This document shows positions 2,799 to 50,952 of a DNA stretch of 64,000 nucleotides, piece by piece. The notes beneath the pieces were generated by a model. The model ran no database searches. It was not told where the DNA came from and worked only from the letters and a program-made list of their open reading frames with translations. The translations under genes were made by a program, and so were the position numbers. This DNA is from a virus (Duplodnaviria > Heunggongvirae > Uroviricota > Caudoviricetes), in the IMG/VR virus record IMGVR_UViG_3300025896_000021. One strand, written 5' to 3'. Position 1 is the stretch's first letter, and every line of letters begins with the position of its first letter.

Positions 2799-3062
2799 AT
2801 GAGCGATGCAAAAATGTTCAGTGGTGATCAAAAGTTGAAGTTGGTTCAGTTGATTAATGAAGGTATGGCAGTCATGCACGAGATTGATACTCTCAATGGC
2901 GGATTGACTGATACTATCAAAGCGATTGCGGAAGAAATTGAAGTCAAACCAAGCACTTTGAAGAAAGCGATTCGTATCGCACACAAAGCTAGTTTGGGTC
3001 AGACAAACAAAGACCACGAAGAACTCAACACAATTCTAGAAACCGTCGGTAAGACTCTCTAA
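2799..3062 (+). CDS. Hypothetical protein (87 aa)
   Basis: ORF track; AGGAGA RBS upstream; its stop overlaps the polB start (TAATG). Confidence 0.5.
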   Translation: MSDAKMFSGDQKLKLVQLINEGMAVMHEIDTLNGGLTDTIKAIAEEIEVKPSTLKKAIRIAHKASLGQTNKDHEELNTILETVGKTL

Positions 3063-5779
3063 TGTCGTATGTAGACGCTATCCACAGCAGGGATGAAGAC
3101 AAGATTTATGTTGTCGAACGAGATACGAACGGCAAACGCCAGTATGTCGAACACCCTGCTAACTATGTACTCTACTACAGTGATCCTAAGGGCAAGCACC
3201 GTAGCATCTACGGCGATCCAGTGGGTAGATTCAGTACTCGCAAACGTGCAGAGTTTGAGAAAGAACGGCGCATTCATTCAAATAAGAAATTATTTGAATC
3301 AGATGTACCTGTTATTTTTCGTTGTCTCAGTGAGAACTATCTTAAAGCGGATGCACCCGTACTACATACTTGCTTCTTTGACATTGAAGTAGACTTTGAT
3401 CCAGTAAAAGGTTTCAGTCCTACCTCTGATCCTTTCAATCCAGTGACTGCTATCAGTTGTTACTTGGACTGGTTAGATCAACTTGTTACTATGGTCATTG
3501 CTCCTAAGCATATGTCTAAAGAAACTGCACAAGAGATTGTAGACCAGTTCGATAACTGCTTATTGTTTGATAATGAGAAGGAAATGTTTGACGTTTTCTT
3601 TGACTTGATTGAAGATGCTGATGTATTAACTGGCTGGAACTCAGAAGGATACGATATTCCATATATGGTTAATCGTGTTACTAGAGTTATGAGTAAAAAT
3701 GACACACGCAAGTTTTGCTTGATGGGTCAATTGCCTAAACCAAGAGAATACGAACGATTCGGTAAGAAAGAAATGACTTACGACTTGGTCGGTCGTGTTC
3801 ACATGGACTATTTGCAACTTTACAAGAAATACAACTATGAATCCCGTCACAGCTACAAGTTAGATGCGATTGGTGAAATGGAAGTAGGTGAAAACAAAAC
3901 TCAATATGAAGGTACTCTGGATCAGTTGTATAATAAGGACTTTAAAAAGTTCATTGAATACAACAGACAAGATACTATGTTGGTTTTTAAGATTCACAAG
4001 AAACTTAAGTTCCTAGAACTAGCTAATCAACTAGCACACGAAAACACTGTACTGCTTCCAACAGTTATGGGTTCAGTGGCTATGATTGAAATGGCAATTT
4101 TTAACGAAGCACACGAACGCGGTGTTGTTGTACCAGATAAAAAACGAAGGAATGAAGATGCAGATGAAATCCAGCAAGCGGCAGGTGCCTTTGTTGCTAC
4201 GCCCAAAAAAGGCATGCACGAATATGTCGGAGCAGTTGACCTTAACTCGCTCTATCCCTCGGTTATTCGCGCCCTTAACATGGCGGGAGAATCAATCGTT
4301 GCCCAAGTTAGACAGACAATAACTGACAAGTACATGCTTGACAAGGGTCATCTACTTGCAAGTAAGAAAAAGCGTTACAAAGATGGTGACGATGACGTTA
4401 CCGGTGCTATTCTATGGGAAAACTTGTTCGGTGCTTTAGAGTACACTGCAATTATGAACCAAGAGCGCGGAACTATACTGACATTAGACTACGAAGATGG
4501 TCGTTCGGTAGAAATGAGTGCGGCAGAGATTTGGAAGTTAGTCTTTGATAGTAATAAGCCTTGGATGCTAAGTGCAAACGGTACAATCTTCTCATACGAG
4601 AAAGAAGGTATTGTTCCCGGACTACTTACTCGTTGGTACAGTGAACGTAAAGAAATGCAAGCGAAAGCTAAAGCAGCTTATGGAACAGACCAGTATGATT
4701 ATTTTGATAAGCGTCAGCTTGTTCGTAAGATTTTGCTTAACTCTGCATACGGCGCACTATTGAACGAGCATTGCCGATTCTATGACAAGCGTATTGGTCA
4801 AAGTGTAACATTGAGTGGTCGTCAGATTGTTAAGCATATGATGAGTAACATCAATGAATCTATCATGGGCGAGTATACGCACGAAGGTGATGCAATCGTT
4901 TATGGTGATACTGACTCATGTTATTTCAGTGCATGGCCCGCAATCAAAGGTGAAGTTGCTGCTGGTACAATGGAATGGTCTAAAGAAACTTGTATTAGTT
5001 TGTACGACTCTATCGCCGAACAAGCTAACGACAGTTTCCCTCAGTTCATGGAGAAAGCATTTCATGCACCTCGTAAGAACGGTGAGATTATCAAAGCTGG
5101 TCGAGAACTAATCGGTGATCGTGCTATCTTTATCGTTAAAAAGCGTTATGCAATCAATATCTTTGATAAAGAAGGCAAGCGCAAAGACAAAGATGGTTCC
5201 CCCGGCGAGATCAAAGCTATGGGTCTTGACTTGAAACGTGCTGATACTCCTAAGTATGTGCAAGAGTTCTTGATGAATGTACTGCAAATGGTTCTTCAAC
5301 AGGGTCGCCCGCGTGAGGAAGTAGTTGAAGTCGTTAAAGCATTCAAACTTAAGCTAGGTGCGCAGGATAGTTGGACTAAAGGTTCTCCTAAGGGCGTGAA
5401 CAGACTTACATACTACGGTGACTTAGAGACTAACAGCAAGAAAGGTAGAGAAAATATGCCCGGACACGTTCGTGCAGCATTGAACTACAACTACTTGCGC
5501 AGAGTTCACGGTGATCAATACAGTCAACGTATTGTAGACGGTATGAAAGTTGTAGTTTGCAAACTGAAACCTAATCCATTAGGCTTTACATCAATTGCTT
5601 ACCCAACTGATGAGCTACGTTTGCCAGCATGGTTCTGTGAGTTACCATTTGACGATGACGAAATGGAAAAGACATTGGTCGATGAAAAGATTGATAACCT
5701 TTTAGGTGTGTTGAATTGGGATATCCGAAGCAACACTAACGTTAAGTCTACATTTGATGATTTATTCTCATTCGGTTAA
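3062..5779 (+). CDS. 43: Family B DNA polymerase (T4 gp43-like, 905 aa)
   Basis: Exo I motif FFDIEVDF; motif B KILLNSAYGAL (Kx3NSxYG); motif C YGDTDS. The length matches T4 gp43. Confidence 0.95.
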   Translation: MSYVDAIHSRDEDKIYVVERDTNGKRQYVEHPANYVLYYSDPKGKHRSIYGDPVGRFSTRKRAEFEKERRIHSNKKLFESDVPVIFRCLSENYLKADAPVLHTCFFDIEVDFDPVKGFSPTSDPFNPVTAISCYLDWLDQLVTMVIAPKHMSKETAQEIVDQFDNCLLFDNEKEMFDVFFDLIEDADVLTGWNSEGYDIPYMVNRVTRVMSKNDTRKFCLMGQLPKPREYERFGKKEMTYDLVGRVHMDYLQLYKKYNYESRHSYKLDAIGEMEVGENKTQYEGTLDQLYNKDFKKFIEYNRQDTMLVFKIHKKLKFLELANQLAHENTVLLPTVMGSVAMIEMAIFNEAHERGVVVPDKKRRNEDADEIQQAAGAFVATPKKGMHEYVGAVDLNSLYPSVIRALNMAGESIVAQVRQTITDKYMLDKGHLLASKKKRYKDGDDDVTGAILWENLFGALEYTAIMNQERGTILTLDYEDGRSVEMSAAEIWKLVFDSNKPWMLSANGTIFSYEKEGIVPGLLTRWYSERKEMQAKAKAAYGTDQYDYFDKRQLVRKILLNSAYGALLNEHCRFYDKRIGQSVTLSGRQIVKHMMSNINESIMGEYTHEGDAIVYGDTDSCYFSAWPAIKGEVAAGTMEWSKETCISLYDSIAEQANDSFPQFMEKAFHAPRKNGEIIKAGRELIGDRAIFIVKKRYAINIFDKEGKRKDKDGSPGEIKAMGLDLKRADTPKYVQEFLMNVLQMVLQQGRPREEVVEVVKAFKLKLGAQDSWTKGSPKGVNRLTYYGDLETNSKKGRENMPGHVRAALNYNYLRRVHGDQYSQRIVDGMKVVVCKLKPNPLGFTSIAYPTDELRLPAWFCELPFDDDEMEKTLVDEKIDNLLGVLNWDIRSNTNVKSTFDDLFSFG

Positions 5780-5853: not shown

Positions 5854-6585
5854 ATGAAAGATACACTACAAAACATCATCCAGTATACAGCTGGTCTTGG
5901 TAACATTGATTTGATTAAAATCACAGGCACTGATACAGAAACACAAATTGCTGCAATTGCAGAAGACAAGAGTGTCGTTATTACAGGTACATTGGCTAAT
6001 CCGCATCCCGAACTCGTCGGTGTGTTTGGTATGCCTAACTTACCAAAGCTAAAAACTATTCTTGGCTTTGATGAATACGATTCTAATGCGGTCATTACAT
6101 TGACACGCAAGGATCGTGATGGAGTTAGCACTCCCGACACAATTCACTTTGCAACAAAAGCAGGTGACTTTGTGAATGACTATCGTTTGATGGCTAAAGC
6201 TATCATTGAAGAAAAAGTCAAGAGCTTTACCTTCAAGGGTACTGGTTGGAATGTTGAATTTGAACCAAGTATTGCTAGCATCTTGCGTTTGAAGAAGCAA
6301 AGTCAAGCGAACAGTGAAGAAAACACATTCGTTACTAAGACAGAGAATGGCGACTTGAAGATTTACTTCGGTGACGTAAGTACTCACAGTGGTAACTTTG
6401 TGTTTCATGCTGGCGTGAACGGTGTACTAACTAAGTCATATCAATGGCCTGTCACAGTTGTGTCTAACATTCTTGGCTTGCCAGGTGATAAGATGTTCCG
6501 CATCAGCGATCAAGGTGCTGCTGAGATTGTTGTGAACAGTGGTATGGCAACATATCGTTACTTGCTTCCTGCTCAATCAAAATGA
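5854..6585 (+). CDS. Hypothetical protein (243 aa)
   Basis: ORF track; RBS AAGGAAA; no recognisable motif. Confidence 0.6.
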   Translation: MKDTLQNIIQYTAGLGNIDLIKITGTDTETQIAAIAEDKSVVITGTLANPHPELVGVFGMPNLPKLKTILGFDEYDSNAVITLTRKDRDGVSTPDTIHFATKAGDFVNDYRLMAKAIIEEKVKSFTFKGTGWNVEFEPSIASILRLKKQSQANSEENTFVTKTENGDLKIYFGDVSTHSGNFVFHAGVNGVLTKSYQWPVTVVSNILGLPGDKMFRISDQGAAEIVVNSGMATYRYLLPAQSK

Positions 6586-6947
6586 TCAAGGGTCTAGCTA
6601 CCAGTAGTAGGTACACAGTTGTTTCTTCTGGGAACACTAGTGTTCCCTATATTAATCAAAATATGAACAATCCTATACAGGGCATGTTGCGTATCTGTGG
6701 TAGTGACCTGCAAGTATTTGACGGAAACAGTTGGATAGTTATGAATTCAAGTTATGCAAGTGTTGGGCTAACTCCTGATGCAGAATTGTTACTTGACTGG
6801 GCTAGACAAAAACGTGACGAAGAAGTTGCTACCCTAAAATTAGCAGAGACTAATCCTACTATCAAAGATTTGCTGAATACTATTAAGCAAAAGCAAGATC
6901 AAATAGAAATGGTCAAGATTCTAATGAAAAACGAAGTTAAAGTATAA
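6582..6947 (+). CDS. Hypothetical protein (121 aa)
   Basis: ORF track; ATGA-coupled to its neighbours. Confidence 0.5.
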   Translation: MIKGLATSSRYTVVSSGNTSVPYINQNMNNPIQGMLRICGSDLQVFDGNSWIVMNSSYASVGLTPDAELLLDWARQKRDEEVATLKLAETNPTIKDLLNTIKQKQDQIEMVKILMKNEVKV

Positions 6948-8497
6948 TGGATCAAGTTAATCTATCAGCAAGTCACAATCCCGATTGGGCATTGTTTTTA
7001 CCCGCAGTCAGTAGTTTCTATATCAGTGGCTTAGGTAAACAGCGTAAGGGTGAACAATACTTTGATGCTGCACGTATTCCTGCACAATTCAACGGCGATG
7101 TTGAGAAACTAAACTTCCTTAACAGCAAAGAAGGTCTATACTACTACAAGTGGGGCTTGTACTCTGCTGGTCACGCTAACTTAGATACAACTGTCAACGA
7201 TCCCAGTGAGTCAATCATTCGTGAACGTGAAGCCGGTACATTCATGCTAGGTGACAGTGGTGGCTTTCAGATTCTTAAAGGTCAATGGCCTGCAGACTGG
7301 AAAGATCCTAACTGTCCTCGTGCTATGTTAAAGCGTAAAGTTGTATTGAACTGGATGGATACGTACATGGACTATGGTATGTGTCTCGATATTCCATCAC
7401 AGTCATTGACTACTTTTGGCATGAAGGATAAGAACGGTGTAAGTCTTCATGGTATCAGTACTATTGAAGAAGCTATTACTGCTACCCATATCAACAATGA
7501 GTACTTTATTCAGAATCGTTCGGGCAAGTGTAAGTTCTTAAACGTATTGCAGGGTCGTAATCACGGTCAGTCGGAAGATTGGTATGCTGAAATGAAAAAG
7601 TACTGCGACCCAAATCAGTATCCTGACAACCACTTTAATGGTTGGGCATTCGGGGGTCAGAACAAGATTGACGTTCACTTGATGCTAACCCGCATGGTTG
7701 ATATCATCCATGACGGACTGTTGCAAGAAGGTAAGCACGACTTGATTCACTGTTTGGGTACAAGTATCTTAGAGTATGCTGTACTCTTTAGTGATATCCA
7801 ACGAGCTATTCGTAAGTATCACAACCCAAAACTTCAAATCACGTTTGATTGTGCTAGCCCATTCTATAGTGCAGCTAAAGGTCTTGCGTACTTCAACACG
7901 AACATTCAGCACAACAAGAAATGGTCATACAGTATGGAAAAGACTGCGGAGAAAAAGTCGTATGCAAACGACACTCGCAAGTTCCGTGATGCTGTGTTAG
8001 CTGAAGGTATCCATAAGATGTTTACTGATAGTCCGGTGACTGATAAACTAGTGCTTAAGGACCTTTGCTATCGTGGTCAAGGTTTCATTGGTCAGCATGG
8101 TAAAGAAACAAAGACCAGCTGGGATACTCTGAGCTATACCTTACTGCAAAGCCATAATGTGTACACTCACATGTCAGCAGTGCAAGAAGCCAATCGTCAA
8201 TATGATTTGGGCATTGTCCCAAAGATGTTGATGAACGAACAATTTGATAGGGTGTTGTTCAAGGATGTTATTGACGAAGTTTTCTCTAAGAAGAACAAGC
8301 AAGAAGCCATCGAATTGATTAACGCTAATTCTAGACTTTGGATGCAATTCCAATCAGGTAGTCAAGGTATCAGTGGTAAACGTACTGTCAACGCAATGAC
8401 TATGTTTGACCAATTATTTGAAACAGCATCAGAACCCGAAGTTGATGAAGTTATAGAAGACAGTGATGATGCGATTAATGAAGCATTGGGTGAATAA
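6947..8497 (+). CDS. dpdA: DpdA-like DNA-guanine transglycosylase (TGT superfamily, 516 aa)
   Basis: Contains FMLGDSGGFQILKGQW, matching the TGT catalytic-Asp motif (LxxDSGGFQ). There is no CxCxxC zinc site, and the protein is larger than typical phage DpdA. It sits with folE, queD and queE. Confidence 0.7.
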   Translation: MDQVNLSASHNPDWALFLPAVSSFYISGLGKQRKGEQYFDAARIPAQFNGDVEKLNFLNSKEGLYYYKWGLYSAGHANLDTTVNDPSESIIREREAGTFMLGDSGGFQILKGQWPADWKDPNCPRAMLKRKVVLNWMDTYMDYGMCLDIPSQSLTTFGMKDKNGVSLHGISTIEEAITATHINNEYFIQNRSGKCKFLNVLQGRNHGQSEDWYAEMKKYCDPNQYPDNHFNGWAFGGQNKIDVHLMLTRMVDIIHDGLLQEGKHDLIHCLGTSILEYAVLFSDIQRAIRKYHNPKLQITFDCASPFYSAAKGLAYFNTNIQHNKKWSYSMEKTAEKKSYANDTRKFRDAVLAEGIHKMFTDSPVTDKLVLKDLCYRGQGFIGQHGKETKTSWDTLSYTLLQSHNVYTHMSAVQEANRQYDLGIVPKMLMNEQFDRVLFKDVIDEVFSKKNKQEAIELINANSRLWMQFQSGSQGISGKRTVNAMTMFDQLFETASEPEVDEVIEDSDDAINEALGE

Positions 8498-8570
8498 CTT
8501 TATTAATACGGGCAAATTAGGCAGCACAACCAGCAAAAGTAGTGTATAATAACTTAACAGGAAATATTAA

Positions 8571-9017
8571 ATGCAAAGAGAACAAGCACTGACCGAAAAG
8601 CGTCAACGAATTAGACAAGAAGCCAAACGAACTATTTGGGTTACGTTTCGTAAAGAAGGCATTCATTGCTATCCAGCTGCAGGTCATCAACCTGATCTTG
8701 CAACTGGTGATGAGTTCGATGTGAGCTTTCTTGGCACACCACATCGACATATTTTTCACTTCACTGTGGGTATTCAAGTAAACCACAATGAACGTGACAT
8801 TGAGTTTATTCAATTCAAACGTTGGCTTGAGAAATTATATCAAGGCACGCTTGTATTGAATGACAAAAGCTGTGAAACAATTAGTGATGATCTCTATGAG
8901 GCAATTGCTAGTCGCTATCCAGAGCGTGACATTCAAATCTCTGTCGCAGAAGACGGTGAGAACGGATGCACTGTATATTACAACACAACTAAACCTATTA
9001 ACAACCTCGCTATCTAA
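8571..9017 (+). CDS. Hypothetical protein (148 aa)
   Basis: ORF track; possible extended -10 (TGTATAAT) upstream. Confidence 0.5.
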   Translation: MQREQALTEKRQRIRQEAKRTIWVTFRKEGIHCYPAAGHQPDLATGDEFDVSFLGTPHRHIFHFTVGIQVNHNERDIEFIQFKRWLEKLYQGTLVLNDKSCETISDDLYEAIASRYPERDIQISVAEDGENGCTVYYNTTKPINNLAI

Positions 9018-9026
9018 GGAAACAAA

Positions 9027-9233
9027 ATGGCAAAACTAAACCTTCAACCTAACCCACGTGTCTATCAACTCTTTGAGGACCTCGAAGCCTATAAGGAGTT
9101 CTGTGTGGATTACGGTTATAAGTTTGATGAATCAACCCTGTATGATATGCGCAGTTTCGCATATCGTCAACATACCAAGCAGCTTGCTGGTAAGTGGCCT
9201 AAGGATTCATGGGAAGACGCTATCCGTCGATGA
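9027..9233 (+). CDS. Hypothetical protein (68 aa)
   Basis: ORF track; RBS AAGGAAA. Confidence 0.45.
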   Translation: MAKLNLQPNPRVYQLFEDLEAYKEFCVDYGYKFDESTLYDMRSFAYRQHTKQLAGKWPKDSWEDAIRR

Positions 9234-10000
9234 AAGCAGTGTTAGTCACTGGGGGTTTCGACCCTCTGCACTCAGGTCACATTGAATATTTCAATGCCGC
9301 TAGAGAACTCGGCGATAAACTAATCGTCGGGTTGAACAGTGACGAATGGTTGACCCGTAAAAAAGGTCAACCTTTTATGCCTTGGGAAGAACGTGCAACT
9401 ATCGTATCATCATTGTATAATGTGGATAGAGTGATTAACTTTGATGATACCGACGACACTGCCAATGATGCAATACGTAAGGCTAGAAAAATCTTTCCTA
9501 ATCACGAAATCATCTTTGCTAACGGCGGAGACCGAACCAAAGAAAATATTCCAGAAATGGAATTACTTACTCAATACTTAAATTTAAAATTTGTATTTGG
9601 TGTAGGTGGGGAGAGCAAACTAAACAGTAGTAGTTGGATTCTGCGTGAGTGGAAGCAGCCGAAAACATTGCGCTCATGGGGATACTATTGTATACTACAT
9701 GATGTTGATGGATGCAAAGTTAAAGAACTCACCATTGAACCCGGTCAAAGTTTGAGTATGCAACGACATTTCAAACGACATGAGTTCTGGCATGTTACTG
9801 AAGGTGAATGTTACATTGATTCTCAACTGGCTAGTGGTTATGTGTTACCTACACAAAAACTAGTAAAGTTTAGTCAGGTTCAAATTCCATTAGGTGATTG
9901 GCATAAACTAACTAATCCATTTGACAAGCCATGTCGTATTGTAGAGATTCAATACGGCGAAGAGTGTGTAGAAGAAGACATTGAAAGAAAAGATGCGTAA
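9230..10000 (+). CDS. HxGH nucleotidyltransferase (RfaE domain II / cytidylyltransferase-like) fused to a C-terminal cupin
   Basis: Start ATG at 9230 overlaps the upstream stop (ATGA). GGFDPLHSGH ... LIVGLNSDEW ... RVINFDDTDDT resembles heptose-1-P adenylyltransferase and TagD. The C-terminal part has a cupin-like pattern (mannose-6-P isomerase type). Confidence 0.7.
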   Translation: MKAVLVTGGFDPLHSGHIEYFNAARELGDKLIVGLNSDEWLTRKKGQPFMPWEERATIVSSLYNVDRVINFDDTDDTANDAIRKARKIFPNHEIIFANGGDRTKENIPEMELLTQYLNLKFVFGVGGESKLNSSSWILREWKQPKTLRSWGYYCILHDVDGCKVKELTIEPGQSLSMQRHFKRHEFWHVTEGECYIDSQLASGYVLPTQKLVKFSQVQIPLGDWHKLTNPFDKPCRIVEIQYGEECVEEDIERKDA

Positions 10001-11168
10001 ACTATATTACATGGGTCTCGAACCCTACAAAGCACGATACACATTGCAGTTACAAGACTGGAATGAAAGTGTATTCAAGGAAAGAAATCTCGACTACATT
10101 ATCGTTCCTGGTGAAACACTTAGCGACGATCAAGCTATTGTAACAGGACAAGTGCTAGATGCACATGGTCGCACATACTTTGGTATGTCGCAACTTATGA
10201 ATCTAGTAAAGATGATGAAGGCAGGAGAATGTACCAATGAAGATGTTATCTACTTTGAAGATATGTTTCAACCAGGAATTGAATCTTTACCGTACATCCT
10301 TAAACAAATCCCAGAGGAATCGCGCCCAAGGATCTTTGTTCGTTGTCTCGCTCAGTCTATTGATCCAGATGATTTTGTACATGTCTGGGGAATGTCTGAC
10401 TTTATGGGTCACTATGAACGCATGGTTGACTCATTCGTTGATGGTGTACTTGCCACTAATGAAGAAATGGTAATGCATATGAAGATTGCGGGTTGGAAGG
10501 CACCAATTTACAATATCAGTGGGTTAGCATTTGGCAAGAGTGAAGTTCAATCTCGTGTTAGTTCTGTCAAGTCGTTCACTGAACGTACACACCGTGTTGT
10601 TTTTTCAGCACGTTGGGATCAAGAGAAGCAACCTGACTTCTACATGGACCTCATTGAAGCATGGCACAAGCGTCATCCAAGTAGTGGCGTTGAATTCTGT
10701 GTTTGCAGTGGTGGCAGCTTGAAAAGTAACAATGAAAGTTACATGAACCGTACGATGCACATGGTCAACATAGGTCAACTTCAAGTATACGAAGACTTAG
10801 AAAAAAATGATTACTACGATATTGTTAATAATTCTCGCGTGGTGTTCAACTGTGCTCTTCAGGACTGGGTCTCCAACACCGTCTCCGAAGCAGATGCGCT
10901 TGGCTGCAATGTGCTTTATCCTGCTTATCGTAGTTTTCCTGAAACATTTGCTAACGATCATACACGCCTCTACGTCCCTTGGTCTATAGAAGATGCAATG
11001 GACAAACTAGAGAAGTTATTGAAGAAGCCCCACGAGAAAATGGGACAAATCAGCGACCGCAATGATGGAACTATTGACCGTATCATTGATATCTTAGAAG
11101 GTAAAGGTCAACTAATGAAACGCATGACTACTGATTACAGAAAATATACTAGAGAAAGCAAATATTAA
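9981..11168 (+). CDS. Hypothetical protein, possible GT-B glycosyltransferase (395 aa)
   Basis: C-terminal VSNTVSEADALGCNVLYP resembles the GT4 E-x7-E donor-binding motif. The assignment is weak. Confidence 0.45.
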   Translation: MKEKMRKLYYMGLEPYKARYTLQLQDWNESVFKERNLDYIIVPGETLSDDQAIVTGQVLDAHGRTYFGMSQLMNLVKMMKAGECTNEDVIYFEDMFQPGIESLPYILKQIPEESRPRIFVRCLAQSIDPDDFVHVWGMSDFMGHYERMVDSFVDGVLATNEEMVMHMKIAGWKAPIYNISGLAFGKSEVQSRVSSVKSFTERTHRVVFSARWDQEKQPDFYMDLIEAWHKRHPSSGVEFCVCSGGSLKSNNESYMNRTMHMVNIGQLQVYEDLEKNDYYDIVNNSRVVFNCALQDWVSNTVSEADALGCNVLYPAYRSFPETFANDHTRLYVPWSIEDAMDKLEKLLKKPHEKMGQISDRNDGTIDRIIDILEGKGQLMKRMTTDYRKYTRESKY

Positions 11169-11169
11169 A

Positions 11170-11685
11170 ATGGCAACATGGAGTGTAAAACCTACATTTA
11201 AGAAGTCAATCATTGAGCGTAACTATCTTACTAAAGATGGTAACACAGTCATGATTGAAACAGGCTGGCGCTGGGGCGAGTTCACTGTAGAAACTGAGGA
11301 TGACAATCCACCAAACATTGAAGCAGGAGTAGATATCTATGACTGTGACTATGACGCTGAATTAGTTGAAACTAGTGATGGTTGTTGGGAAGAAGTTGAC
11401 ACAGATGAATGCGATGAAGAAACTACAACCTGGATCGAAGAATTCTTTGAAGAAGGTAACAGTTGGCTTGATCTAGAAGAAAACGGCTGGAGTCAAGACG
11501 AGTGTGAAATGATTATTGATTGTGACTTGGAAATCAGAAAGATCAATGATGATGGTTCATATAGTGACCCAGTTGTGATTGACGAATCTGAGGAAGATAA
11601 ACAGATTAGAGAATCACTTCCGACTCCCCAACTGACACCCAACGCAGCATGGCCATTTGGTACTCCGGAAGAAGGAGAAAAATAA
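11170..11685 (+). CDS. Acidic hypothetical protein (171 aa)
   Basis: ORF track; very Asp/Glu-rich. Confidence 0.5.
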   Translation: MATWSVKPTFKKSIIERNYLTKDGNTVMIETGWRWGEFTVETEDDNPPNIEAGVDIYDCDYDAELVETSDGCWEEVDTDECDEETTTWIEEFFEEGNSWLDLEENGWSQDECEMIIDCDLEIRKINDDGSYSDPVVIDESEEDKQIRESLPTPQLTPNAAWPFGTPEEGEK

Positions 11686-11876
11686 TGGCAACACGCAAAA
11701 ATAAACAGATTGACAACAGTGGAGTTGTAAAAGGTAACCATTTGACCGTAACTACTTTCTCTGATGGTAGAACTGTGTTAGAATGGGATGACGAAGCATT
11801 ATTAAAAGAAGTGCAAGAAGCACTCAAATCGGTAGAACAAAAACCAAAACGCAAATTAACAAAGGAAAAACAATGA
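11685..11876 (+). CDS. Hypothetical basic protein (about 63 aa)
   Basis: Internal ATG overlapping the upstream stop (TAATG), in the same frame as the 11649 track ORF. Confidence 0.4.
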   Translation: MATRKNKQIDNSGVVKGNHLTVTTFSDGRTVLEWDDEALLKEVQEALKSVEQKPKRKLTKEKQ

Positions 11877-12061
11877 GCGCACATACAGAAATTGAAACAC
11901 AATTAGCAGCATACCAAGCTGAATCAGCAAAGTTTGAAGCAGGCAACGCAGCAGCAGGTACCCGCGCCCGCAAAGCATTGGGTGAACTGTCTAAAGCAGT
12001 TAAGGCTCGTCGTAACGAGATTACCGAGACTAAGAACGCACGAAAAGAAGCTAAGGCTTAA
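11873..12061 (+). CDS. Hypothetical protein (62 aa)
   Basis: ORF track; ATGA overlap. Confidence 0.4.
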   Translation: MSAHTEIETQLAAYQAESAKFEAGNAAAGTRARKALGELSKAVKARRNEITETKNARKEAKA

Positions 12062-12074
12062 TTAGTGATAAATA

Positions 12075-12106
12075 AAATGTAAGCTACACAACGGTAGCTT
12101 ACATTT
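12075..12106. terminator. Hairpin with 12-13 bp stem (AATGTAAGCTAC...GTAGCTTACATT)
   Basis: Perfect inverted repeat immediately after the 11873 ORF. The T-run lies on the minus side, so the transcription direction it terminates is ambiguous. Confidence 0.35.
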
Positions 12107-12137
12107 CAAAAACAAACCATCACAAAGGAAGGTTATC

Positions 12138-12812
12138 ATGAGTTACAATAAACAAAAATGCGATCCAGAATTGGGTCAACGAGTTCACGAACATCTAGTT
12201 AAGATGGGAGTTGAGACTCCTACCAATCCAAACAGCTATGATCGTAAAGAAAAGATCGACCACATTGAAGCACACTTTACGCATATTATGCGTATCTTGG
12301 GTCTTGACTTATCAGACGATAGTTTGATTGAAACACCAAAGCGTGTTGCTAAGATGTACGTCAACGAAATATTTTGGGGTCTTGACTACGAAGCATTCCC
12401 CAAATGCACTACAGTTGACAACAAGATGAAGTACAACGAAATGGTGTGCGAACGCAATGTCAATGTACAATCAAACTGTGAACATCACTTTGTCGTCATT
12501 GACGGTCTTGCCACTGTTGCTTATGTACCAAAAGATAAAGTACTTGGATTGAGTAAGATCAATCGTATTGTAGAATATTTCTCGAAGCGTCCTCAAATTC
12601 AAGAACGACTTACCGAGCAAGTGTTTTATGCATTGCAGTATATCTTGGGCACAGAAGATGTTGCGGTTATGATTGATGCACAACATTATTGCGTTAAGAG
12701 TCGCGGTGTAGAAGATACTGGTAGTTCAACTGTCACTAGCAAACTAGGTGGTGGATTCAAAAGTGATCCAGCAGCTAGAGCAGAGTTCTATCAACTAGCA
12801 CGTGGTCGATAA
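12138..12812 (+). CDS. folE: GTP cyclohydrolase I (FolE)
   Basis: NCEHHFV ... KINRIVEYFSKRPQIQERLTEQV matches the FolE active-site and signature regions. Confidence 0.9.
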   Translation: MSYNKQKCDPELGQRVHEHLVKMGVETPTNPNSYDRKEKIDHIEAHFTHIMRILGLDLSDDSLIETPKRVAKMYVNEIFWGLDYEAFPKCTTVDNKMKYNEMVCERNVNVQSNCEHHFVVIDGLATVAYVPKDKVLGLSKINRIVEYFSKRPQIQERLTEQVFYALQYILGTEDVAVMIDAQHYCVKSRGVEDTGSSTVTSKLGGGFKSDPAARAEFYQLARGR

Positions 12813-12994
12813 TGAAAATTATCCCTATATGGCGTAAAGCCGTTTACGCTTTCTTTGCGCCATTGTTCATTTTTGTTTGGATGATCTTTCATCCAAAACT
12901 AGTTTGGGCACAAGCAAAGAAAGAATGGAATACGCCATCAGCTTGTAACTGTGATTGTAATCAAGGACGCAGATGTAATTGCGGTAAACAATGA
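12812..12994 (+). CDS. Small membrane protein with Cys-rich tail (60 aa)
   Basis: ORF track; hydrophobic segment followed by CNCDCNQGRRCNCG. Confidence 0.4.
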   Translation: MKIIPIWRKAVYAFFAPLFIFVWMIFHPKLVWAQAKKEWNTPSACNCDCNQGRRCNCGKQ

Positions 12995-13305
12995 ACGAAC
13001 TTACCAGACCAACGCCACCAAAGGCAAGACTAAGATGTGACGCATGTGGTACTATCGGCGAGGATAGAAAGCATAATAGTGTAATTTGCAGGTTTTTCCA
13101 ATGGCTAGATAAAACATTTCGGAGTAGAAGAATGATTGATGAAAATGGATATGAGTGGGAAGTATACTATAATGGTGTGTTGCTTGGTAGAACAAACACC
13201 GAAGGAAGACACCAACTTGTCAAAGAAAAAGTAGAGCATCCAATTGGCATACCGGAGATTGAATTTAAGTTGGTCTTGAAACAACATTTTGGAGTTGAAG
13301 AATGA
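12991..13305 (+). CDS. Hypothetical protein ending in HFGVEE (104 aa)
   Basis: ORF track. The C-terminal HFGVEE and the junction DNA motif are shared with five other small genes. Confidence 0.5.
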   Translation: MNELTRPTPPKARLRCDACGTIGEDRKHNSVICRFFQWLDKTFRSRRMIDENGYEWEVYYNGVLLGRTNTEGRHQLVKEKVEHPIGIPEIEFKLVLKQHFGVEE

Positions 13306-13502
13306 ATGAAAAAATTAAAGAACTTGCACTACAAGCAGGTGGTAGTCACTATCCCGATGTTGGTGGCAAAACACTAGAAAAGTTTGCCGAGTTGATTGTG
13401 CGGGAATGTGCTAGGGTAGCATTTGAAAGCGATTTGACAATGGCTATAGGACAATGGGGTGCCGACTCTGCAATTTTAAAACATTTCGGAGTTGAAGAAT
13501 GA
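13302..13502 (+). CDS. Small protein of the MNE(R/K)IKELA...KFAELIVREC...HFGVEE family (66 aa)
   Basis: Full-length paralogue of the 33180, 50953 and 57615 genes. Confidence 0.55.
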   Translation: MNEKIKELALQAGGSHYPDVGGKTLEKFAELIVRECARVAFESDLTMAIGQWGADSAILKHFGVEE

Positions 13503-13753
13503 AACTTGAATACACATCCGGCCCAGGCTGGACGAGAGTTGCACCAGTATACGAGCTTGGTGAAAAATACACTAGTATTATTGGCTGGCGTAGAGGACAC
13601 GGTCGTCCTTCCAAAGAAACAGTTGAAAGTTTATATCCAGACTGCAAGTTTGTTGGAGTAAACTATTACACGGGATGGTGCCCCAACACATTTAACCGTA
13701 AGACTTTTACTCACGTTTGTGTTGAACGAACATTTGGAGATAAATTATGCTAA
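13499..13753 (+). CDS. Hypothetical protein (84 aa)
   Basis: ORF track; ATGA coupling. Confidence 0.45.
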   Translation: MKLEYTSGPGWTRVAPVYELGEKYTSIIGWRRGHGRPSKETVESLYPDCKFVGVNYYTGWCPNTFNRKTFTHVCVERTFGDKLC

Positions 13754-13947
13754 AAGATAGAAGAACCTTAATGGAGCAAGAGATTGCTAAATTGAAGAAA
13801 ATATGTGGTGAAATGTATATTGCTGCAATACGAGGTGTTCAGACCGAAGAAGAACTTGCCATTTATGATGGTCACTTAGAAAAGTTGGGAACTATGGTAA
13901 CAGAACTGTCAATTATTAATGACATGATTAGTAAAGGTCACGAATGA
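13747..13947 (+). CDS. Hypothetical protein (66 aa)
   Basis: ORF track. Confidence 0.4.
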   Translation: MLKDRRTLMEQEIAKLKKICGEMYIAAIRGVQTEEELAIYDGHLEKLGTMVTELSIINDMISKGHE

Positions 13948-14107
13948 ACTTACAACCTAAAGATACAAGCAAGGGACATTTTTATGTCAGCCTTGTAAAG
14001 AGTGTACTACGCATTGGCGCAGGCACATCATTGATTATGGTAGGCTTCCTCGAAGCAGGCACATTGCTAATTGTTGCAGAAGTTCTAGGCATTGTAGAGG
14101 AATTGGT

Positions 14108-14395
14108 GTGACAGGTTCGCACAATGAGTTCATAGATGAGCTAAGGAAAGATCCAGTGAAACTTAAAAAGTTTCTACGTGATGTAATGGGGCCGTCTTGT
14201 AGAATCATTGAGGGAGTTGAGAAAGAACATATGTTAACTGTGTTCAGGCTCATTAAACCCACTGACACAAGTAACAATCAACATACTTGGACTACAGTGT
14301 ATCATCATGCAGGCAAAGAGTATCACCTAACTGACGGTGTTGGATTTGACGAATTAACAGAGATACTACCGGAGAACGATGATGAGAAATCTTGA
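14108..14395 (+). CDS. Hypothetical protein (95 aa)
   Basis: ORF track. Confidence 0.4.
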   Translation: MTGSHNEFIDELRKDPVKLKKFLRDVMGPSCRIIEGVEKEHMLTVFRLIKPTDTSNNQHTWTTVYHHAGKEYHLTDGVGFDELTEILPENDDEKS

Positions 14396-14582
14396 ATTAG
14401 TTGATGCAGTAATAGCACTGCACGAGATTGCACGAACAGTAGAAACTGAAGTAGGTCACGGTCAATTGAGCGAAGATATCCGTAGTTGCGCTGACAGACT
14501 ACATGAACTTAGTATCTCTGAAAGAGAACACGAAGTTAGAATGAAAGATGCGATAAACAAGGCTAAAAATGATATTCAATAA
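14379..14582 (+). CDS. Hypothetical protein (67 aa)
   Basis: ORF track. Confidence 0.4.
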   Translation: MMRNLELVDAVIALHEIARTVETEVGHGQLSEDIRSCADRLHELSISEREHEVRMKDAINKAKNDIQ

Positions 14583-15027
14583 GATCAAAGAACTAAAAGA
14601 CAAGGGACTAAAGATTGGCATCACCTTTAGCCAATTTGACCTATTGCATGCGGGACATATCGCAATGCTTAGCCAAGCTAAGAACCATTGTGATTATCTT
14701 ATTGCTGCACTGCAAAACAATGCTCAATGGGATCGTCCTGAAAAGAACGAACCTATTCAAAGTATCGTTGAAAGACAGATTAGTTTAAGTGCTGTAAGGT
14801 TTGTAGATGAAATCGTAGTCTACAACACCGAGAAGGACCTTGAAGATATCTTACTCACACTACCTATTGATGTTCGCATTTTGGGTGTAGAGTACAGAGA
14901 CAAAGAATTTACGGGCAAAGATATCTGTGCCCAAAGAAACATTGAATTAGTGTTCAATGGACGTGACCACTCTTTTAGCTCTAGTAGCTTGAGAAAAAGA
15001 GTAGTGGAAGCACAAAAAGGTAAATAA
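14569..15027 (+). CDS. Cytidylyltransferase-like HxGH nucleotidyltransferase (152 aa)
   Basis: ITFSQFDLLHAGHIAML ... YLIAAL ... VDEIVVY resembles glycerol-3-P cytidylyltransferase and RfaE domain II (GxFDxxHxGH). Confidence 0.7.
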   Translation: MIFNKIKELKDKGLKIGITFSQFDLLHAGHIAMLSQAKNHCDYLIAALQNNAQWDRPEKNEPIQSIVERQISLSAVRFVDEIVVYNTEKDLEDILLTLPIDVRILGVEYRDKEFTGKDICAQRNIELVFNGRDHSFSSSSLRKRVVEAQKGK

Positions 15028-15103
15028 GAGTAGCGGCCTTTTAGGGCATCATCCCGCTTTACAAATTCTGCTGCCTATGATATAATATAACATAGGAAAA
15101 ATA

Positions 15104-15583
15104 ATGTCAAAGAAATATTTCAGTACAAAAACATACAAGCAGATTGGACCAGTTGCTTATCGTCAATGGCGTGCAGATAGTCATTGCAATCTAATTCACG
15201 GTTATGCAATGTCGTTTCATTTTGAATTTGAAGCAGACACCCTAGACGCACGAAACTGGGTAACTGACTTTGGTGGACTAAAGCCACTCAAAGCATTGCT
15301 AGAAGATTGGTTTGATCACACATTATTAGTTGCACAAGATGACCCAATGCGTGAAGAATTACTTAACTTGGGTAAACTGAAACTAGCGAAGATTACAGAA
15401 GTAGAAAAGACAGGATGCGAAGGCATTGCTGACTTCTTGTATGAATATGTTAATACAATTTTCTTGCCAAGCTGTGGCAGTGCAGAAGCTGAACGAGTTT
15501 GGTGTACACGGGTTGAAGTGCGTGAGACAGATAACAACATGGCAGGTCGTCAAGGTCGTAGAGAAGATAACGAGTTTCAATAA
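15104..15583 (+). CDS. queD: 6-carboxy-5,6,7,8-tetrahydropterin synthase (QueD)
   Basis: SHCNLIHGYAMSFHFEF ... NWVTDFGGLK fits the QueD / 6-pyruvoyl-tetrahydropterin synthase CxxxHGH motif and fold pattern. Confidence 0.85.
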   Translation: MSKKYFSTKTYKQIGPVAYRQWRADSHCNLIHGYAMSFHFEFEADTLDARNWVTDFGGLKPLKALLEDWFDHTLLVAQDDPMREELLNLGKLKLAKITEVEKTGCEGIADFLYEYVNTIFLPSCGSAEAERVWCTRVEVRETDNNMAGRQGRREDNEFQ

Positions 15584-16431
15584 TGAGTAAATTAAAAATT
15601 AGTGAGTTGTTCTATAGCATTCAGGGTGAAGGGAAGTACATGGGTGTTCCCTCCGTGTTTCTTAGAACATACGGATGCAATTTTACATGCGGTGGCTTTG
15701 GTATGGCCAAGGGAGAAATGAGTAATGAAAGAGATATTATTGCGGTTAAGGCAGAAGATTACACGGATTATAAATCCTTACCACTTGTCAGCACGGGTTG
15801 TGATTCTTATGCATCTTGGGACCCTCGTTTCAAACATCTTAGTCCTGTGCTCGATTCCGATACTATTGCTAACAGCATTTGTGATTTACTGCCTGGACAT
15901 CGTTGGCTCGATGAACACTTGGTTATCACGGGTGGCGAACCGCTTCTTGGTTGGCAAAGAGCGTATCCTGAATTACTTTCGCATGAGAGAATGAAGGGTT
16001 TGCAAGAACTAACATTTGAAACAAACGGTACTCAGATGATTACACCTGAGTTTGGACAGTACTTGCATGACTGGCAAAAGATGAGAATGAAACATTCGGT
16101 CACATTTAGTGTCAGTCCAAAGTTGTCTATCAGCGGTGAGAAAACAGAAGATGCTATCATTCCCGATGTGATCAATCAATATCAAAACTATGGCTCGGTG
16201 TATCTCAAGTTTGTAGTAGCAACTGAATCCGATGTGAAAGAAGCTGAGGATACAGTGTTAGCATACAAGCGTAAAGGATTCAAGGGTCATATTTACTTGA
16301 TGCCATGCGGTGGGGTAGAATCACTATACAATCTAAATGCTAAGAATGTTGCAATCGCAGCAATGAATCGTGGCTGGCGTTATAGTGATAGACTACAGGT
16401 GCCATTGTTTAAGAACGAGTGGGGCACATGA
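15583..16431 (+). CDS. queE: 7-carboxy-7-deazaguanine synthase (QueE, radical SAM)
   Basis: N-terminal SIQGEGKYMGVPSVFLRTYGCNFTC and LVITGGEPLL match QueE. The start is ATGA-coupled to queD. Confidence 0.85.
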   Translation: MSKLKISELFYSIQGEGKYMGVPSVFLRTYGCNFTCGGFGMAKGEMSNERDIIAVKAEDYTDYKSLPLVSTGCDSYASWDPRFKHLSPVLDSDTIANSICDLLPGHRWLDEHLVITGGEPLLGWQRAYPELLSHERMKGLQELTFETNGTQMITPEFGQYLHDWQKMRMKHSVTFSVSPKLSISGEKTEDAIIPDVINQYQNYGSVYLKFVVATESDVKEAEDTVLAYKRKGFKGHIYLMPCGGVESLYNLNAKNVAIAAMNRGWRYSDRLQVPLFKNEWGT

Positions 16432-16679
16432 TTGCAACTAGAATTATAGACAATGACATGGGTGCAGTATTAAAAGTACCTCTAACTGGTAGAGGCACTA
16501 TTCATGGTATTACTATTGTGATTGATGCGGTTAAACTTCCTGAATTTGATATAAGCCTCTTAGAAATATTATCAGTTGACAAGTGCATAGCACGGTTCAC
16601 TACGCACGTAGAAGAACATATATCGGATATAGAAGACCGAGTAAAGTTTATTGACTATTACAAGAAATGGGTAAAATAA
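16419..16679 (+). CDS. Hypothetical protein (86 aa)
   Basis: ORF track. Confidence 0.4.
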   Translation: MGHMIATRIIDNDMGAVLKVPLTGRGTIHGITIVIDAVKLPEFDISLLEILSVDKCIARFTTHVEEHISDIEDRVKFIDYYKKWVK

Positions 16680-18028
16680 TGAAATTATACAGCAAACGAA
16701 TTGCATTCTTAATAAGTGACCAACACTTTATCCCCCACGGTGGAATTGGTTCCTTCTGTAAGAGTTTTACAGAAATGTGTGGCCGATTGAATTGGAAAGT
16801 TGACATTATCTTAGACAAAGCGCCTACTGGTACCTTTGACACAGTTATTAAAAATGCAGGCGCAAATCTAGTATGGCCACTTGAACCACTAAAGTACAGT
16901 GACCACACTGCTACCTTTGCGTTTAGTGATACCATCAACTTTGAAAAGATTATCAACTTTCGCAAAGCATTACTAGAAGCATTTGAAGAAAACGTATATG
17001 ACATGGTGGTGTGTAATACGCAGGAAGCAATGACTGCTGCCTATGCTATGACTATTAACAAGTATATCCCTGTGATATTCTACACCCACTTACATTCAAT
17101 GATTTTTCGTGATAGTCAGGGTAGCGATGTGTTCTTAGATAGCTATCATAATTTCTATAACAAGCATATGGAGTTTACTGATATCGTCATCGGAACACAA
17201 AGTCAAAAGAATATAGATGAGTTAACAAAGTACGGCGCGACAAATACCGCACTTCTACGCATGCCTATGAGTGAGCGTGGTCTATTAGAACACAATGTTA
17301 CTAAGCGAAGTGGGGTGTTATTCATTGGTCGTTGGGAAGAAGGCAAGAACCCAGATGCATATATTCGTGCAATGAAAGAAGCACAACTTCCTTGCAAAGT
17401 AATGACTAACAGCAATGGTGCAAAGAAGTTTGAGAAAGCGTTTGCTGATGCAGGTATTATTGATTATGAAATCAAAGCGGGCATCACTGGTCAAGAAAAA
17501 GTAGACTTTATCACAAGTTCTAGTGTGTTCTTTATGCCAAGTCTGCGTGAGAACTATCCTTTTGCTTTCTTGGAATGTCTTGGTCACATGCCATGCGTAG
17601 TATTAGACAATCAAGATTGGTCAGATAATTTTGATGAAAAATATTTTCATAAAGTAAATGTCAAGAATGTAGCAGAGACAATTAACGCAGTGTACGGATC
17701 AATACAAAGTACGGAGGCACTGGACTATGTACGTGAACTAGACGACCAAGTTGCACATGGTTGGGTAAGTTTTCTAGATAACTTTGTTGGTAAGCGTAGT
17801 AATACATCAGCCGCAAAGATTAACACTTACGAGACAATCAAGTATCGTGATTACATTTCTCAGTTGAATCGCAAGCATTTGGCACGAGAAGACTTTGAAA
17901 GTGTGTTGTCAAACAAGTACAAGTTTATCAATGTTTGGTACACTGACAATGACACATACTTAAGCAAAGACCCAACATTTAAACCAGTAGAGGAAGTAAC
18001 AGGCGCAAGTCTGTTTGAATTCGCATGA
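16667..18028 (+). CDS. GT-B fold glycosyltransferase (GT4-like, about 450 aa)
   Basis: C-terminal FFMPSLRENYPFAFLECLGHMPCVVLD matches the GT4 E-x7-E motif. The alternative start ATG at 16679 overlaps the upstream stop. Confidence 0.6.
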   Translation: MGKIMKLYSKRIAFLISDQHFIPHGGIGSFCKSFTEMCGRLNWKVDIILDKAPTGTFDTVIKNAGANLVWPLEPLKYSDHTATFAFSDTINFEKIINFRKALLEAFEENVYDMVVCNTQEAMTAAYAMTINKYIPVIFYTHLHSMIFRDSQGSDVFLDSYHNFYNKHMEFTDIVIGTQSQKNIDELTKYGATNTALLRMPMSERGLLEHNVTKRSGVLFIGRWEEGKNPDAYIRAMKEAQLPCKVMTNSNGAKKFEKAFADAGIIDYEIKAGITGQEKVDFITSSSVFFMPSLRENYPFAFLECLGHMPCVVLDNQDWSDNFDEKYFHKVNVKNVAETINAVYGSIQSTEALDYVRELDDQVAHGWVSFLDNFVGKRSNTSAAKINTYETIKYRDYISQLNRKHLAREDFESVLSNKYKFINVWYTDNDTYLSKDPTFKPVEEVTGASLFEFA

Positions 18029-38334: not shown

Positions 38335-38428
38335 TAGTCGCATATATTGCACAAGAGGGTGCAATATATATTATAGTAGATGCCTTCGGGGTCTATCACA
38401 AAAATCTTGCTTTCTAAAGGAGAAAAAA

Positions 38429-50951: not shown

Positions 50952-50952
50952 T

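Follow-up and report, generated by a model that had tools for sequence, protein, structure and literature searches.

The stretch of DNA analysed here (the window) is 64 kb of the genome, about 350 kb in full, of an uncultured jumbo phage of the Caudoviricetes (IMG/VR virus record IMGVR_UViG_3300025896_000021). It carries a cluster of genes that would make a 7-deazaguanine and exchange it for guanine in DNA: a DpdA-like transglycosylase, which we have termed DpdAx, the precursor enzymes FolE, QueD and QueE, a QueD-like protein, DpdL, and, interleaved with these, two glycosyltransferases (GTs), GTa and GTb, and a set of sugar-nucleotide genes (Table 1). All convincing open reading frames (ORFs) from 3 to 23 kb are on the + strand. 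An earlier, sequence-only reading had proposed a 7-deazaguanine DNA-modification gene set at this place. Its DpdA-like, FolE, QueD and QueE genes are all found on the + strand at the positions it gave, and the proposal is backed by the fold of the transglycosylase, its catalytic residues and its association with deazaguanine genes across diverged phages (Pseudomonas jumbo phage PA5oct, Vibrio phage 2.275.O, two metagenomic loci, L014 and L016, and IMG/VR loci). DpdL, both conserved GTs and the interleaved sugar-nucleotide genes had been overlooked.

Table 1. Genes of the cluster and its flanks, with positions in the window and the evidence for each assignment.
Feature	Position	Strand	Evidence or remarks
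B-family DNA polymerase (polB)	3062-5779	+
243-aa protein ("clamp" position)	5854-6585	+
121-aa protein	6582-6947	+
DpdA-like transglycosylase DpdAx, 516 aa	6947-8497	+	proposed nucleophile D301; D103/D148 base pocket; zinc cysteines absent
Putative DpdL, 148 aa, QueD-like T-fold protein	8571-9017	+	LGTPHRHIF; tblastn to ACP17/phiST DpdL
68-aa ORF, no function assigned	9027-9233	+	after DpdL in almost all relatives/most IMG/VR loci
Nucleotidyltransferase-cupin fusion	9209-10000	+	HxGH, HldE-domain-II-like + mannose-6-phosphate isomerase C-terminal type; Pfam, NCBIfam
GTa, GT4-like GT-B glycosyltransferase	9981-11168	+	weak Pfam Glycos_transf_1; invariant motifs
Very acidic 171-aa protein	11170-11685	+
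Hc1-like basic histone-like protein, 62 aa	11873-12061	+	precomputed Pfam PF07432
FolE, GTP cyclohydrolase I	12138-12812	+	NCBIfam NF006824, Pfam
Several small ORFs	between FolE and small nucleotidyltransferase	+
Small HxGH nucleotidyltransferase (HldE-II/TagD-like)	14569-15027	+	Pfam, NCBIfam, PHROG
QueD, 6-carboxytetrahydropterin (CPH4) synthase, phage type CxxxHGY	15104-15583	+	Pfam PTPS, PHROG
QueE, 7-carboxy-7-deazaguanine (CDG) synthase, radical SAM	15583-16431	+	PHROG; C32, C36, C73
GTb, second GT4-like glycosyltransferase	16667-18028	+	weak Pfam Glycos_transf_1
Short GalE-like NAD-dependent nucleoside diphosphate (NDP)-sugar epimerase	18025-18855	+	Pfam Epimerase, NCBIfam galE
UvdE-type UV-damage endonuclease	18903-19937	+
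5'-3' exonuclease	22114-23121	+

Megablast with 17 kb of the window gave no nucleotide match to 50,697 phage records; a protein identical to DpdAx (516 amino acids, aa) is present on contigs from metagenomes, the longest of them 359 kb. Among cultured phages, PA5oct and 2.275.O are nearest: their polB is 46-49% and 43-47% identical, respectively, to that of the window, versus 26% for a T4-like phage. The "T4-like background" of the sequence-only reading is thus too loose a description, and the phage is a jumbo phage related to PA5oct, with which it has a gene order in common (polB, 243-aa protein, small ORF, transglycosylase ... QueE ... RNase H/exonuclease). DpdAx is thereby part of the replication module, close to the DNA polymerase.

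Fold and active site of DpdAx

No match to DpdAx was found in Pfam, PHROG or NCBIfam, nor among Protein Data Bank (PDB) sequences by phmmer/hmmsearch, and the profile of a 64-sequence family remained likewise without a match in sequence libraries; the protein was recognised by fold and profile-profile methods only. Three of the 64 relatives matched the tRNA-guanine transglycosylase (TGT) family (PF01702) weakly, at best with an E of 0.011, and the window protein itself had no match above the gathering threshold. Its AlphaFold2 model (predicted local distance difference test, pLDDT, 89.7; predicted template modelling score, pTM, 0.89; disorder only at residues 474-516) has the TGT-type (beta/alpha)8 barrel, and Foldseek against the PDB returned only TGTs, with E ~1e-6.

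An hhalign comparison with Escherichia coli TGT (probability 90%, E 1.5e-6) pairs D103, D148 and D301 of the window protein with D89, D143 and D264 of the enzyme, so that the relation to TGT/DpdA proposed from the motif is recovered by a profile search. Around D103, LGDSGGFQ is aligned with LTDSGGFQ, and around the nucleophile (D301/D264) TFDCASPF is aligned with MFDCVMPT. Across all six frames, no second DSGG[FY]Q besides this LGDSGGFQ was found in ORFs of 80 aa or longer; S73, D103, S104, G106, D148, P150, H268, G271 and D301 are invariant in 64 diverse members of the family. The zinc motif CxCxxC of tRNA TGTs is missing, as the sequence-only reading had noted, from the window protein and also from 5 other members of its clade, with the HN motif kept; FTDSPVTD of the window is aligned with CNCPVC in a protein of Vibrio phage vB_VcorM_GR7B (GR7B).

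The extra domain once suspected in residues 300-516 is not supported. The TGT alignment extends to about residue 447, and residues 300-420 thus correspond to the C-terminal subdomain that TGTs usually have; after it come a helical extension to about residue 475 and an acidic disordered tail (476-516), and the reading as a separate enzymatic domain at the C-terminus was rejected. We hold it very probable that DpdAx is a DNA transglycosylase inserting a 7-deazaguanine derivative.

A clade of DpdA-like proteins without annotation

The family to which DpdAx belongs comprises more than 6,600 proteins by word-indexed search, all of them without annotation, or 833 clusters at 50% identity (E <=1e-3); at least 596 IMG/VR loci were found in a search with a 13-sequence alignment of closer homologues. 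In pairwise BLAST, the window protein, EST35_0316 of PA5oct, the homologues of Sinorhizobium phage Phosso and of 2.275.O, and two metagenomic proteins form one clade, with E values of 1e-20 to 1e-99. The DpdA2 proteins of Acidovorax phage ACP17, Synechococcus phage BUCT-ZZ01 and Xanthomonas phage X1 carry the motif DSGGLQ and are tied to the DpdA2 of phages nt-1 and VH7D. BLASTP of the window protein against these three gave E >1, other members of the clade gave weak matches to the DpdA2 group, down to E 0.001, and the 71 records retrieved by tblastn with ACP17 DpdA2 include none that is PA5oct-like.

Membership of DpdA2 was rejected, since the likeness is seen at the level of profile (window-family profile against ACP17 DpdA2: probability 96.5%, E 1e-9) and of fold only. 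DpdA3 was rejected as well: the same profile aligns with DpdA3 of Cellulophaga phage phiST (CGPG_00065) with an hhalign probability of 65% over 82 columns, and the phiST protein, devoid of a DSGG motif, gave TM scores of 0.22/0.40 with Foldseek. Against viral models, Foldseek E values were 8e-26 for 2.275.O, 5e-8 for nt-1 DpdA2, 5e-4 for a mycobacteriophage DpdA and 2e-2 for phiST DpdA3, and fold comparison ranks the window protein nearest to DNA-acting DpdA. We treat DpdAx as a clade of its own, distinct from both DpdA1-4 and the bacterial DpdA, with DpdA2 as its nearest neighbour; no paper in the literature searched names this clade, and "DpdA5" had no match there. In 2.275.O, DpdAx adjoins QueF, a YhhQ-type transporter, QueC, Gat, FolE and QueE; because of this pairing, we take the clade to serve more than one deazaguanine.

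A 538-aa "TGT domain" protein of GR7B (locus L007, 7617-9233), in which CxCxxC is kept, stands between the new clade and DpdA2 (probability 98.7% with the window-family profile). The phage DpdAs without a zinc site may have branched off at this point.

Precursor genes, DpdL and the missing QueC

The library assignments of the three precursor genes hold. FolE scores 329 bits with the NCBIfam equivalog NF006824 (cut-off 202; Pfam E 4e-61). QueD passes the Pfam PTPS threshold with 58.5 bits, matches the PHROG QueD-like family at E 7.5e-43 and is 70% identical to ACP17 QueD; its variant motif CxxxHGY is also found in the QueDs of ACP17 and phiST. QueE (PHROG QueE-like, E 4e-53) is 49% identical to the BUCT-ZZ01 enzyme and 35% to the KVP40/nt-1 type, and its cysteines C32, C36 and C73 are common to nt-1, PA5oct, BUCT-ZZ01 and X1, arranged as CxxxC, an insertion of ~36 residues and the third Cys.

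DpdL has been described as a paralogue of QueD whose proposed role is the decarboxylation of CDG, which would give 7-deazaguanine; it has the signature LxxxHRHxF in place of the QueD motif CxxxHGH, and occurs in phages with DpdA, FolE, QueD and QueE that lack QueC (PMC10516641). The ORF that follows DpdAx fits this signature with FLGTPHRHIF. In tblastn it is 52% identical to ACP17 DpdL (E 7e-32) and 33% to CGPG_00067 of phiST (E 2e-7, with the match inside that gene), and its identity with EST35_0318 of PA5oct and the Phosso protein is 59 and 61%, respectively. Residues H32, H58, H60, H72, E78, E102 and E127 are invariant in the DpdL alignments. The ORF has no Pfam match, and a PDB search with the DpdL profile gave nothing meaningful; a T-fold relation of DpdL with QueD was reported at 99.9% by HHpred (PMC10516641). 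The assignment as a putative DpdL rests on the similarity to the named DpdLs and on the motif.

The absence of QueC from the window, already remarked on in the sequence-only reading, is confirmed: in none of the six frames does a window ORF of 80 aa or more contain the PP-loop motif SGGxDS, and tblastn of the window with the QueC, QueF, Gat, YhhQ, phosphoribosyltransferase (PRTase) and small kinase of relatives found nothing. We extended the survey to 80 IMG/VR loci with a transglycosylase 52-89% identical to DpdAx, taken with +/-10 kb, where the counts refer to loci with enough flanking sequence. DpdL is present in 50 of 51, FolE in 25 of 25 and QueD and QueE each in 17 of 22; QueC, QueF, Gat and YhhQ occur in none of the 80. 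In the PA5oct genome, scanned except for its last ~780 bases, we found FolE, two QueD-like genes, QueE and DpdL besides the DpdA-like gene, and also a GT and a PRTase (QueE, DpdL and the PRTase near DpdAx; FolE and QueD elsewhere), and no QueC, QueF or Gat. Its sole PP-loop ORF, TilS-like and located among tRNA genes, bears no similarity to QueC and was dismissed.

The sequence-only reading had offered two ways out, a queC elsewhere or a base derived from CDG. With DpdL adjacent and QueC absent from the 80 loci and from almost the whole PA5oct genome, the evidence favours the second: DpdL would remove the CDG carboxyl, and QueC would therefore be needless. We think it probable that the base comes from CDG through DpdL without QueC, and predict a base of the 2'-deoxy-7-deazaguanosine (dDG) type.

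Small PRTase genes stand in the clusters of several relatives (PA5oct, L005 15946-16380; BUCT-ZZ01, L012 4102-4563; L014 5962-7777; L016 2846-3301) and in 6 of 25 IMG/VR loci; L014 and several IMG/VR loci hold an AAA_18-type kinase gene. Neither gene is present in the window. In these relatives, the PRTase might recycle the guanine that is released, or supply a route at the level of nucleotides.

Glycosyltransferases tied to DpdL and DpdA

A GT profile retrieved GT1-family proteins from the PDB (E 2e-4). In GTa, for which the start codon is not certain (in public gene calls it is placed 4 or 10 codons further downstream), the motifs R211...K216, E303 and D295/E-x7-E are invariant among the window, BUCT-ZZ01, ACP17, X1, PA5oct and L014, including homologues only ~20% identical. 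GTa homologues are few in the phage collection, and always beside DpdL or DpdA. One of them, UTS52032 of BUCT-ZZ01 (64% identity), directly follows the DpdL of that phage; in ACP17 the homologue is located between DpdA2 and DpdL, in Xanthomonas phages X1 and BUDD it is adjacent, and in PA5oct the GTa-family gene sits between the DpdA-like gene and DpdL. In Phosso, the GT gene comes directly after DpdL, ~170 kb from the transglycosylase.

A tblastn search with the PA5oct GT gave 22 records, 17 of them DpdL phages, including Phosso and BCSR5. Among the 50,697 records, 18 of the 28 with DpdL also hold one of the 23 GT records (hypergeometric 6e-58, for records that are not phylogenetically independent). 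All told, the GTa family is found beside DpdL or DpdA in about seven separate phage lineages, and in 34 of 35 IMG/VR relatives with enough flank. GTb is 41% identical to UTS52035, located between FolE and DpdA2 in BUCT-ZZ01, so that both GTs lie inside the deazaguanine cluster of that phage, and 32% identical (E 2.5e-61) to a GT adjoining a bacterial DpdAx in Shimia.

BUCT-ZZ01 is a T4-like freshwater cyanophage, and it uses DpdA2, a DpdA subfamily other than that of the window. Identities between the two are 64% for GTa (L012 9010-10176), 62% for FolE, 49% for QueE, 39% for QueD and 34% for DpdL, which suggests that genes have been exchanged between freshwater phages.

The interleaved genes would provide the sugar. 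The nucleotidyltransferase-cupin fusion, found in many relatives, presumably makes or edits an NDP-sugar. The small nucleotidyltransferase, which would activate a sugar phosphate or an alditol phosphate, is present in 18 of 25 relatives with enough flank, in most of them between FolE and QueD. The GalE-like epimerase (Pfam Epimerase E 1e-33; NCBIfam galE 156 bits, under the cut-off) follows GTb in relatives, too, and may edit the sugar donor. A GT4-type enzyme, HuiG, is reported to glycosylate a 7-deazapurine in the formation of huimycin, and GT4-type enzymes are proposed to attach a disaccharide to a 7-deazapurine in that of dapiramicin (bioRxiv 2026.04.15.718813). The literature searched describes no sugar-bearing purine in natural DNA.

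Bacterial counterparts

A scan of one bacterial genome per species gave 70 loci, ~15 of which are phage contigs binned into metagenome-assembled genomes. Bacterial chromosomes, including those of isolates and complete genomes, account for 54 loci, mostly from Rhizobiales, Sphingomonadales, Rhodobacterales and Burkholderiales. Their DpdAx homologues (~400-520 aa) are 25-34% identical to the window protein, and their neighbours are a Vut_1/YhhQ-family transporter (14 loci; YhhQ is a preQ0 transporter), GTa (13), GTb (7) and a large protein (~30). One Methylobacterium locus additionally has DpdL. The pairing of DpdAx and GT in bacteria is located among defence genes: in Ochrobactrum sp. MYb379 (L132, 2566-10978) the order is GmrSD, p853, DpdAx, Vut_1, GTa, and in Shimia ponticola (L155, 2512-12240) an ABC-3C gene ... 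Vut_1, GTa, DpdAx, p585, GTb. The large partner proteins p853 and p585 have no Pfam match. The pairing of transglycosylase and GT is thus old and recurrent. The bacterial module of DpdAx, Vut_1, GTa and GTb with p853/p585 may represent a new system, similar to Dpd, for self-modification or restriction.

Proposed pathway and alternatives

By homology, FolE converts GTP to dihydroneopterin triphosphate (H2NTP), QueD turns this into CPH4 and QueE forms CDG. DpdL would remove the carboxyl of CDG to leave 7-deazaguanine. DpdAx would then exchange guanine for the deazapurine in duplex phage DNA after replication: D301 would attack C1' of deoxyguanosine to give a covalent D301-deoxyribose intermediate, as in TGT/DpdA, with D103 and D148 in the base pocket, and guanine would be released. 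More speculatively, GTa and GTb would attach one or two sugars to the deazapurine, and the NDP-sugar donor for this would come from the cupin, the GalE-like epimerase and both HxGH nucleotidyltransferases. In huimycin and dapiramicin the sugars are attached to the exocyclic 2-amino group, and by analogy the exocyclic N2 would be the most plausible attachment site. Restriction enzymes would be blocked by the resulting hypermodified base.

We favour this sequence of events as a whole (7-deazaguanine made, exchanged for guanine, then glycosylated), with moderate confidence. Taken for itself, the glycosylation of the inserted base is a tentative proposal, and its extension to glycosylated 7-deazaguanine in the DNA of the window lineage, PA5oct, ACP17, BUCT-ZZ01, X1 and some alpha- and betaproteobacterial chromosomes is slightly more tentative again. 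We regard the cluster as a member of the known DpdL-type, QueC-independent systems, fitted with a new, unannotated DpdA clade and a conserved GT pair.

Several points weigh against the proposed pathway. The modification is deduced for this uncultured phage from its genes, and 64 of ~350 kb were seen, so that a distant queC is possible. The decarboxylase activity of DpdL is an unproven proposal of the literature; expression of ACP17 dpdA and dpdL in E. coli gave no dDG (PMC10516641), and our hhalign comparison of DpdL with QueD, using small 7-sequence profiles, was weak (probability 49.6%). As for the GTs, GTa and GTb score 24.3 and 22.8 bits with Pfam Glycos_transf_1, below the gathering cut-off of 26.4, and the AlphaFold2 model of GTa, from a shallow alignment, is poor (pLDDT 66.9). 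Some 40 of the 54 bacterial DpdAx loci have no adjacent GT; phiST makes plain dDG without one, so GTs are dispensable for dDG. Finally, 7-deazaguanine has no side-chain hydroxyl, so that any acceptor atom named for the sugar is speculative and not assignable from sequence.

In the strongest alternative, plain dDG is the end product, as it is for phiST and Vibrio phage VP1, and the GTs and sugar genes serve something else, such as glycosylation of the virion or host envelope, or another base. Both phages have fully substituted dDG with no sugar reported, dDG offers no obvious acceptor hydroxyl, envelope-modifying GTs are frequent in phage genomes, and many bacterial DpdAx loci do without a GT. 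It is nevertheless rather unlikely, in our judgement: in unrelated phages, and in bacteria too, the homologues of GTa and GTb are physically linked with DpdL or DpdA, and the Phosso GT, directly after DpdL, is far from the other replication genes. Service to another base is countered by Pfam scans of the larger window ORFs, in which no acceptor-creating hydroxymethylase or thymidylate-synthase-like enzyme was found; a second base-modification pathway was rejected on that ground.

It is improbable that DpdL is not a decarboxylase and that the inserted base is CDG or a derivative, e.g., a sugar ester or N-glycoside made by the GTs. The activity of DpdL is unproven (PMC10516641), the tight linkage of GT and DpdL could mean one common substrate, and the literature holds that VH7D DpdA2 inserts CDG at low efficiency and that 2'-deoxy-7-carboxy-7-deazaguanosine (dCDG) exists in STSV-2; against this, phiST, whose product is dDG, has the same signature in its DpdL and the same genes (FolE, QueD, QueE and DpdA, without QueC).

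A pre-replicative route, in which the phage polymerase would incorporate a deazapurine nucleotide and the TGT-like protein would play a minor part, is a shade less probable still. The PRTases in the clusters of PA5oct, BUCT-ZZ01, L014, L016 and the IMG/VR loci, and the small kinase in several, would suit such a route. In tubercidin biosynthesis, such a PRTase acts on CDG. The window, however, has no PRTase or kinase, yet the catalytic triad of its DpdAx is intact; the PRTase could equally salvage released guanine, and a 2023 study makes the case for a post-replicative exchange in every instance known.

The least credible of the alternatives is that queC lies elsewhere in the genome, leading to 2'-deoxy-7-cyano-7-deazaguanosine (dPreQ0), 2'-deoxy-7-amido-7-deazaguanosine (dADG) or 2'-deoxyarchaeosine (dG+) as in the classical DpdA phages, or that the enzyme modifies tRNA rather than DNA: the window is only part of the genome, 2.275.O carries QueC, QueF and Gat with a DpdAx of the same clade and TGT-fold enzymes classically act on tRNA, but DpdL is present, QueC is absent from the 80 related loci (+/-10 kb) and from PA5oct up to its last ~780 bases, the structure is nearest to DNA-acting DpdA, PA5oct DNA behaves as if modified at G, and no tRNA genes were found in the window.

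DpdAx would supply the transglycosylase hitherto missing for the modified G of therapeutic jumbo phages of the PA5oct type, and adds a large DpdA clade, invisible to Pfam, NCBIfam and PHROG models, with hundreds of clusters in metagenomes and bacterial chromosomes. The tie between DpdL and a conserved GT partner provides a testable reason for the failed dpdA and dpdL reconstitution in E. coli: if true, the glycosylation model would explain why those two genes alone gave no product. A sugared deazapurine would then be a new class of DNA hypermodification, relevant to the evasion of restriction, CRISPR and glycosylases, to the sequencing and cloning of such phages and to DNA-labelling enzymes, and the bacterial Vut_1-GTa-DpdAx-p585-GTb module beside defence genes would represent a new means of self-marking, akin to Dpd.

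Other features of the window

Within the cluster, the Hc1-like gene (11873-12061) is kept in most relatives, and the acidic 171-aa protein (11170-11685) is a possible DNA mimic. UvdE comes directly after the GalE-like gene, a position kept in several relatives (L074, L077, L078); that it deals with abasic or distorted sites arising from base exchange is only a guess. The polB of PA5oct (L005 5605-10831) is split by a Hef-like homing endonuclease gene; that of the window is intact.

Farther along, a chaperone/protease block (37126-44615) consists of ClpX (37126-38334), a full-length DnaK/Hsp70 (38429-40330; Pfam E 8e-255), Hsp20 (40323-40772) and ClpP (44025-44615), with a DNA ligase (30066-31424) and an SPFH protein (31607-32404) upstream. 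In PA5oct, a comparable ClpX/Hsp/ClpS/FtsH/ligase/ClpP region adjoins FolE and QueD. An NAD+ salvage pair (49926-53856) is formed by a nicotinamide mononucleotide adenylyltransferase-Nudix fusion (49926-50951) and a nicotinamide phosphoribosyltransferase (52423-53856). The first 2000 nucleotides (1-2000) have a GC content of 50%, vs ~40% elsewhere; the ORF at 427-1899 encodes a TIG/He_PIG/Gly-rich protein, of which related contigs have three tandem paralogues upstream of polB. A promoter/terminator scan of the window gave nothing above chance.

Comparison with known systems

The biosynthetic logic of the window is that of phiST, which combines DpdA3 and DpdL with FolE, QueD and QueE, lacks QueC and has fully dDG DNA (PMC10516641). 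Both have a DpdL with LxxxHRHxF, a QueD with CxxxHGY and a cluster adjoining the DNA polymerase; phiST differs by its DpdA3 transglycosylase and the lack of GTs and sugar-nucleotide genes. ACP17, BUCT-ZZ01, X1 and BUDD have adjacent FolE, QueD, QueE, DpdL and a GTa homologue, to which BUCT-ZZ01 adds a GTb homologue, like the window. Their transglycosylase is DpdA2 (DSGGLQ), unlike that of the window, and their DNA chemistry is unreported.

PA5oct (Wroclawvirus) has a DpdA-like ortholog, 35% identical to DpdAx and in the same position behind polB, the "clamp" and a small ORF, together with DpdL (59%), a GTa-family GT, QueE, FolE, QueD and the ClpX/ClpP/ligase neighbourhood. It differs by its PRTase, its single GT and the DpdL motif HFH. 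PA5oct DNA resists G-site restriction enzymes and is attacked by nucleases that sense modified G; the 2025 preprint reporting this names QueE and PTPS and no transglycosylase (PMC12191111).

The bacterial Dpd system (DpdA/DpdB/DpdC; dPreQ0/dADG; structure 7UI4) is more distant, with 13% sequence identity to DpdAx; DpdB and DpdC are absent from the window, and the substrate of DpdAx is probably not preQ0. The GTs of huimycin and dapiramicin act on free secondary-metabolite bases. The AGT and BGT enzymes of T4 are GT-B enzymes that glucosylate a DNA base, in their case through the hydroxymethyl of a pyrimidine (5-hydroxymethylcytosine, hmC), and it is in this acceptor that they differ from what we propose for the window. 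The conserved GT pair is accounted for by no published system.

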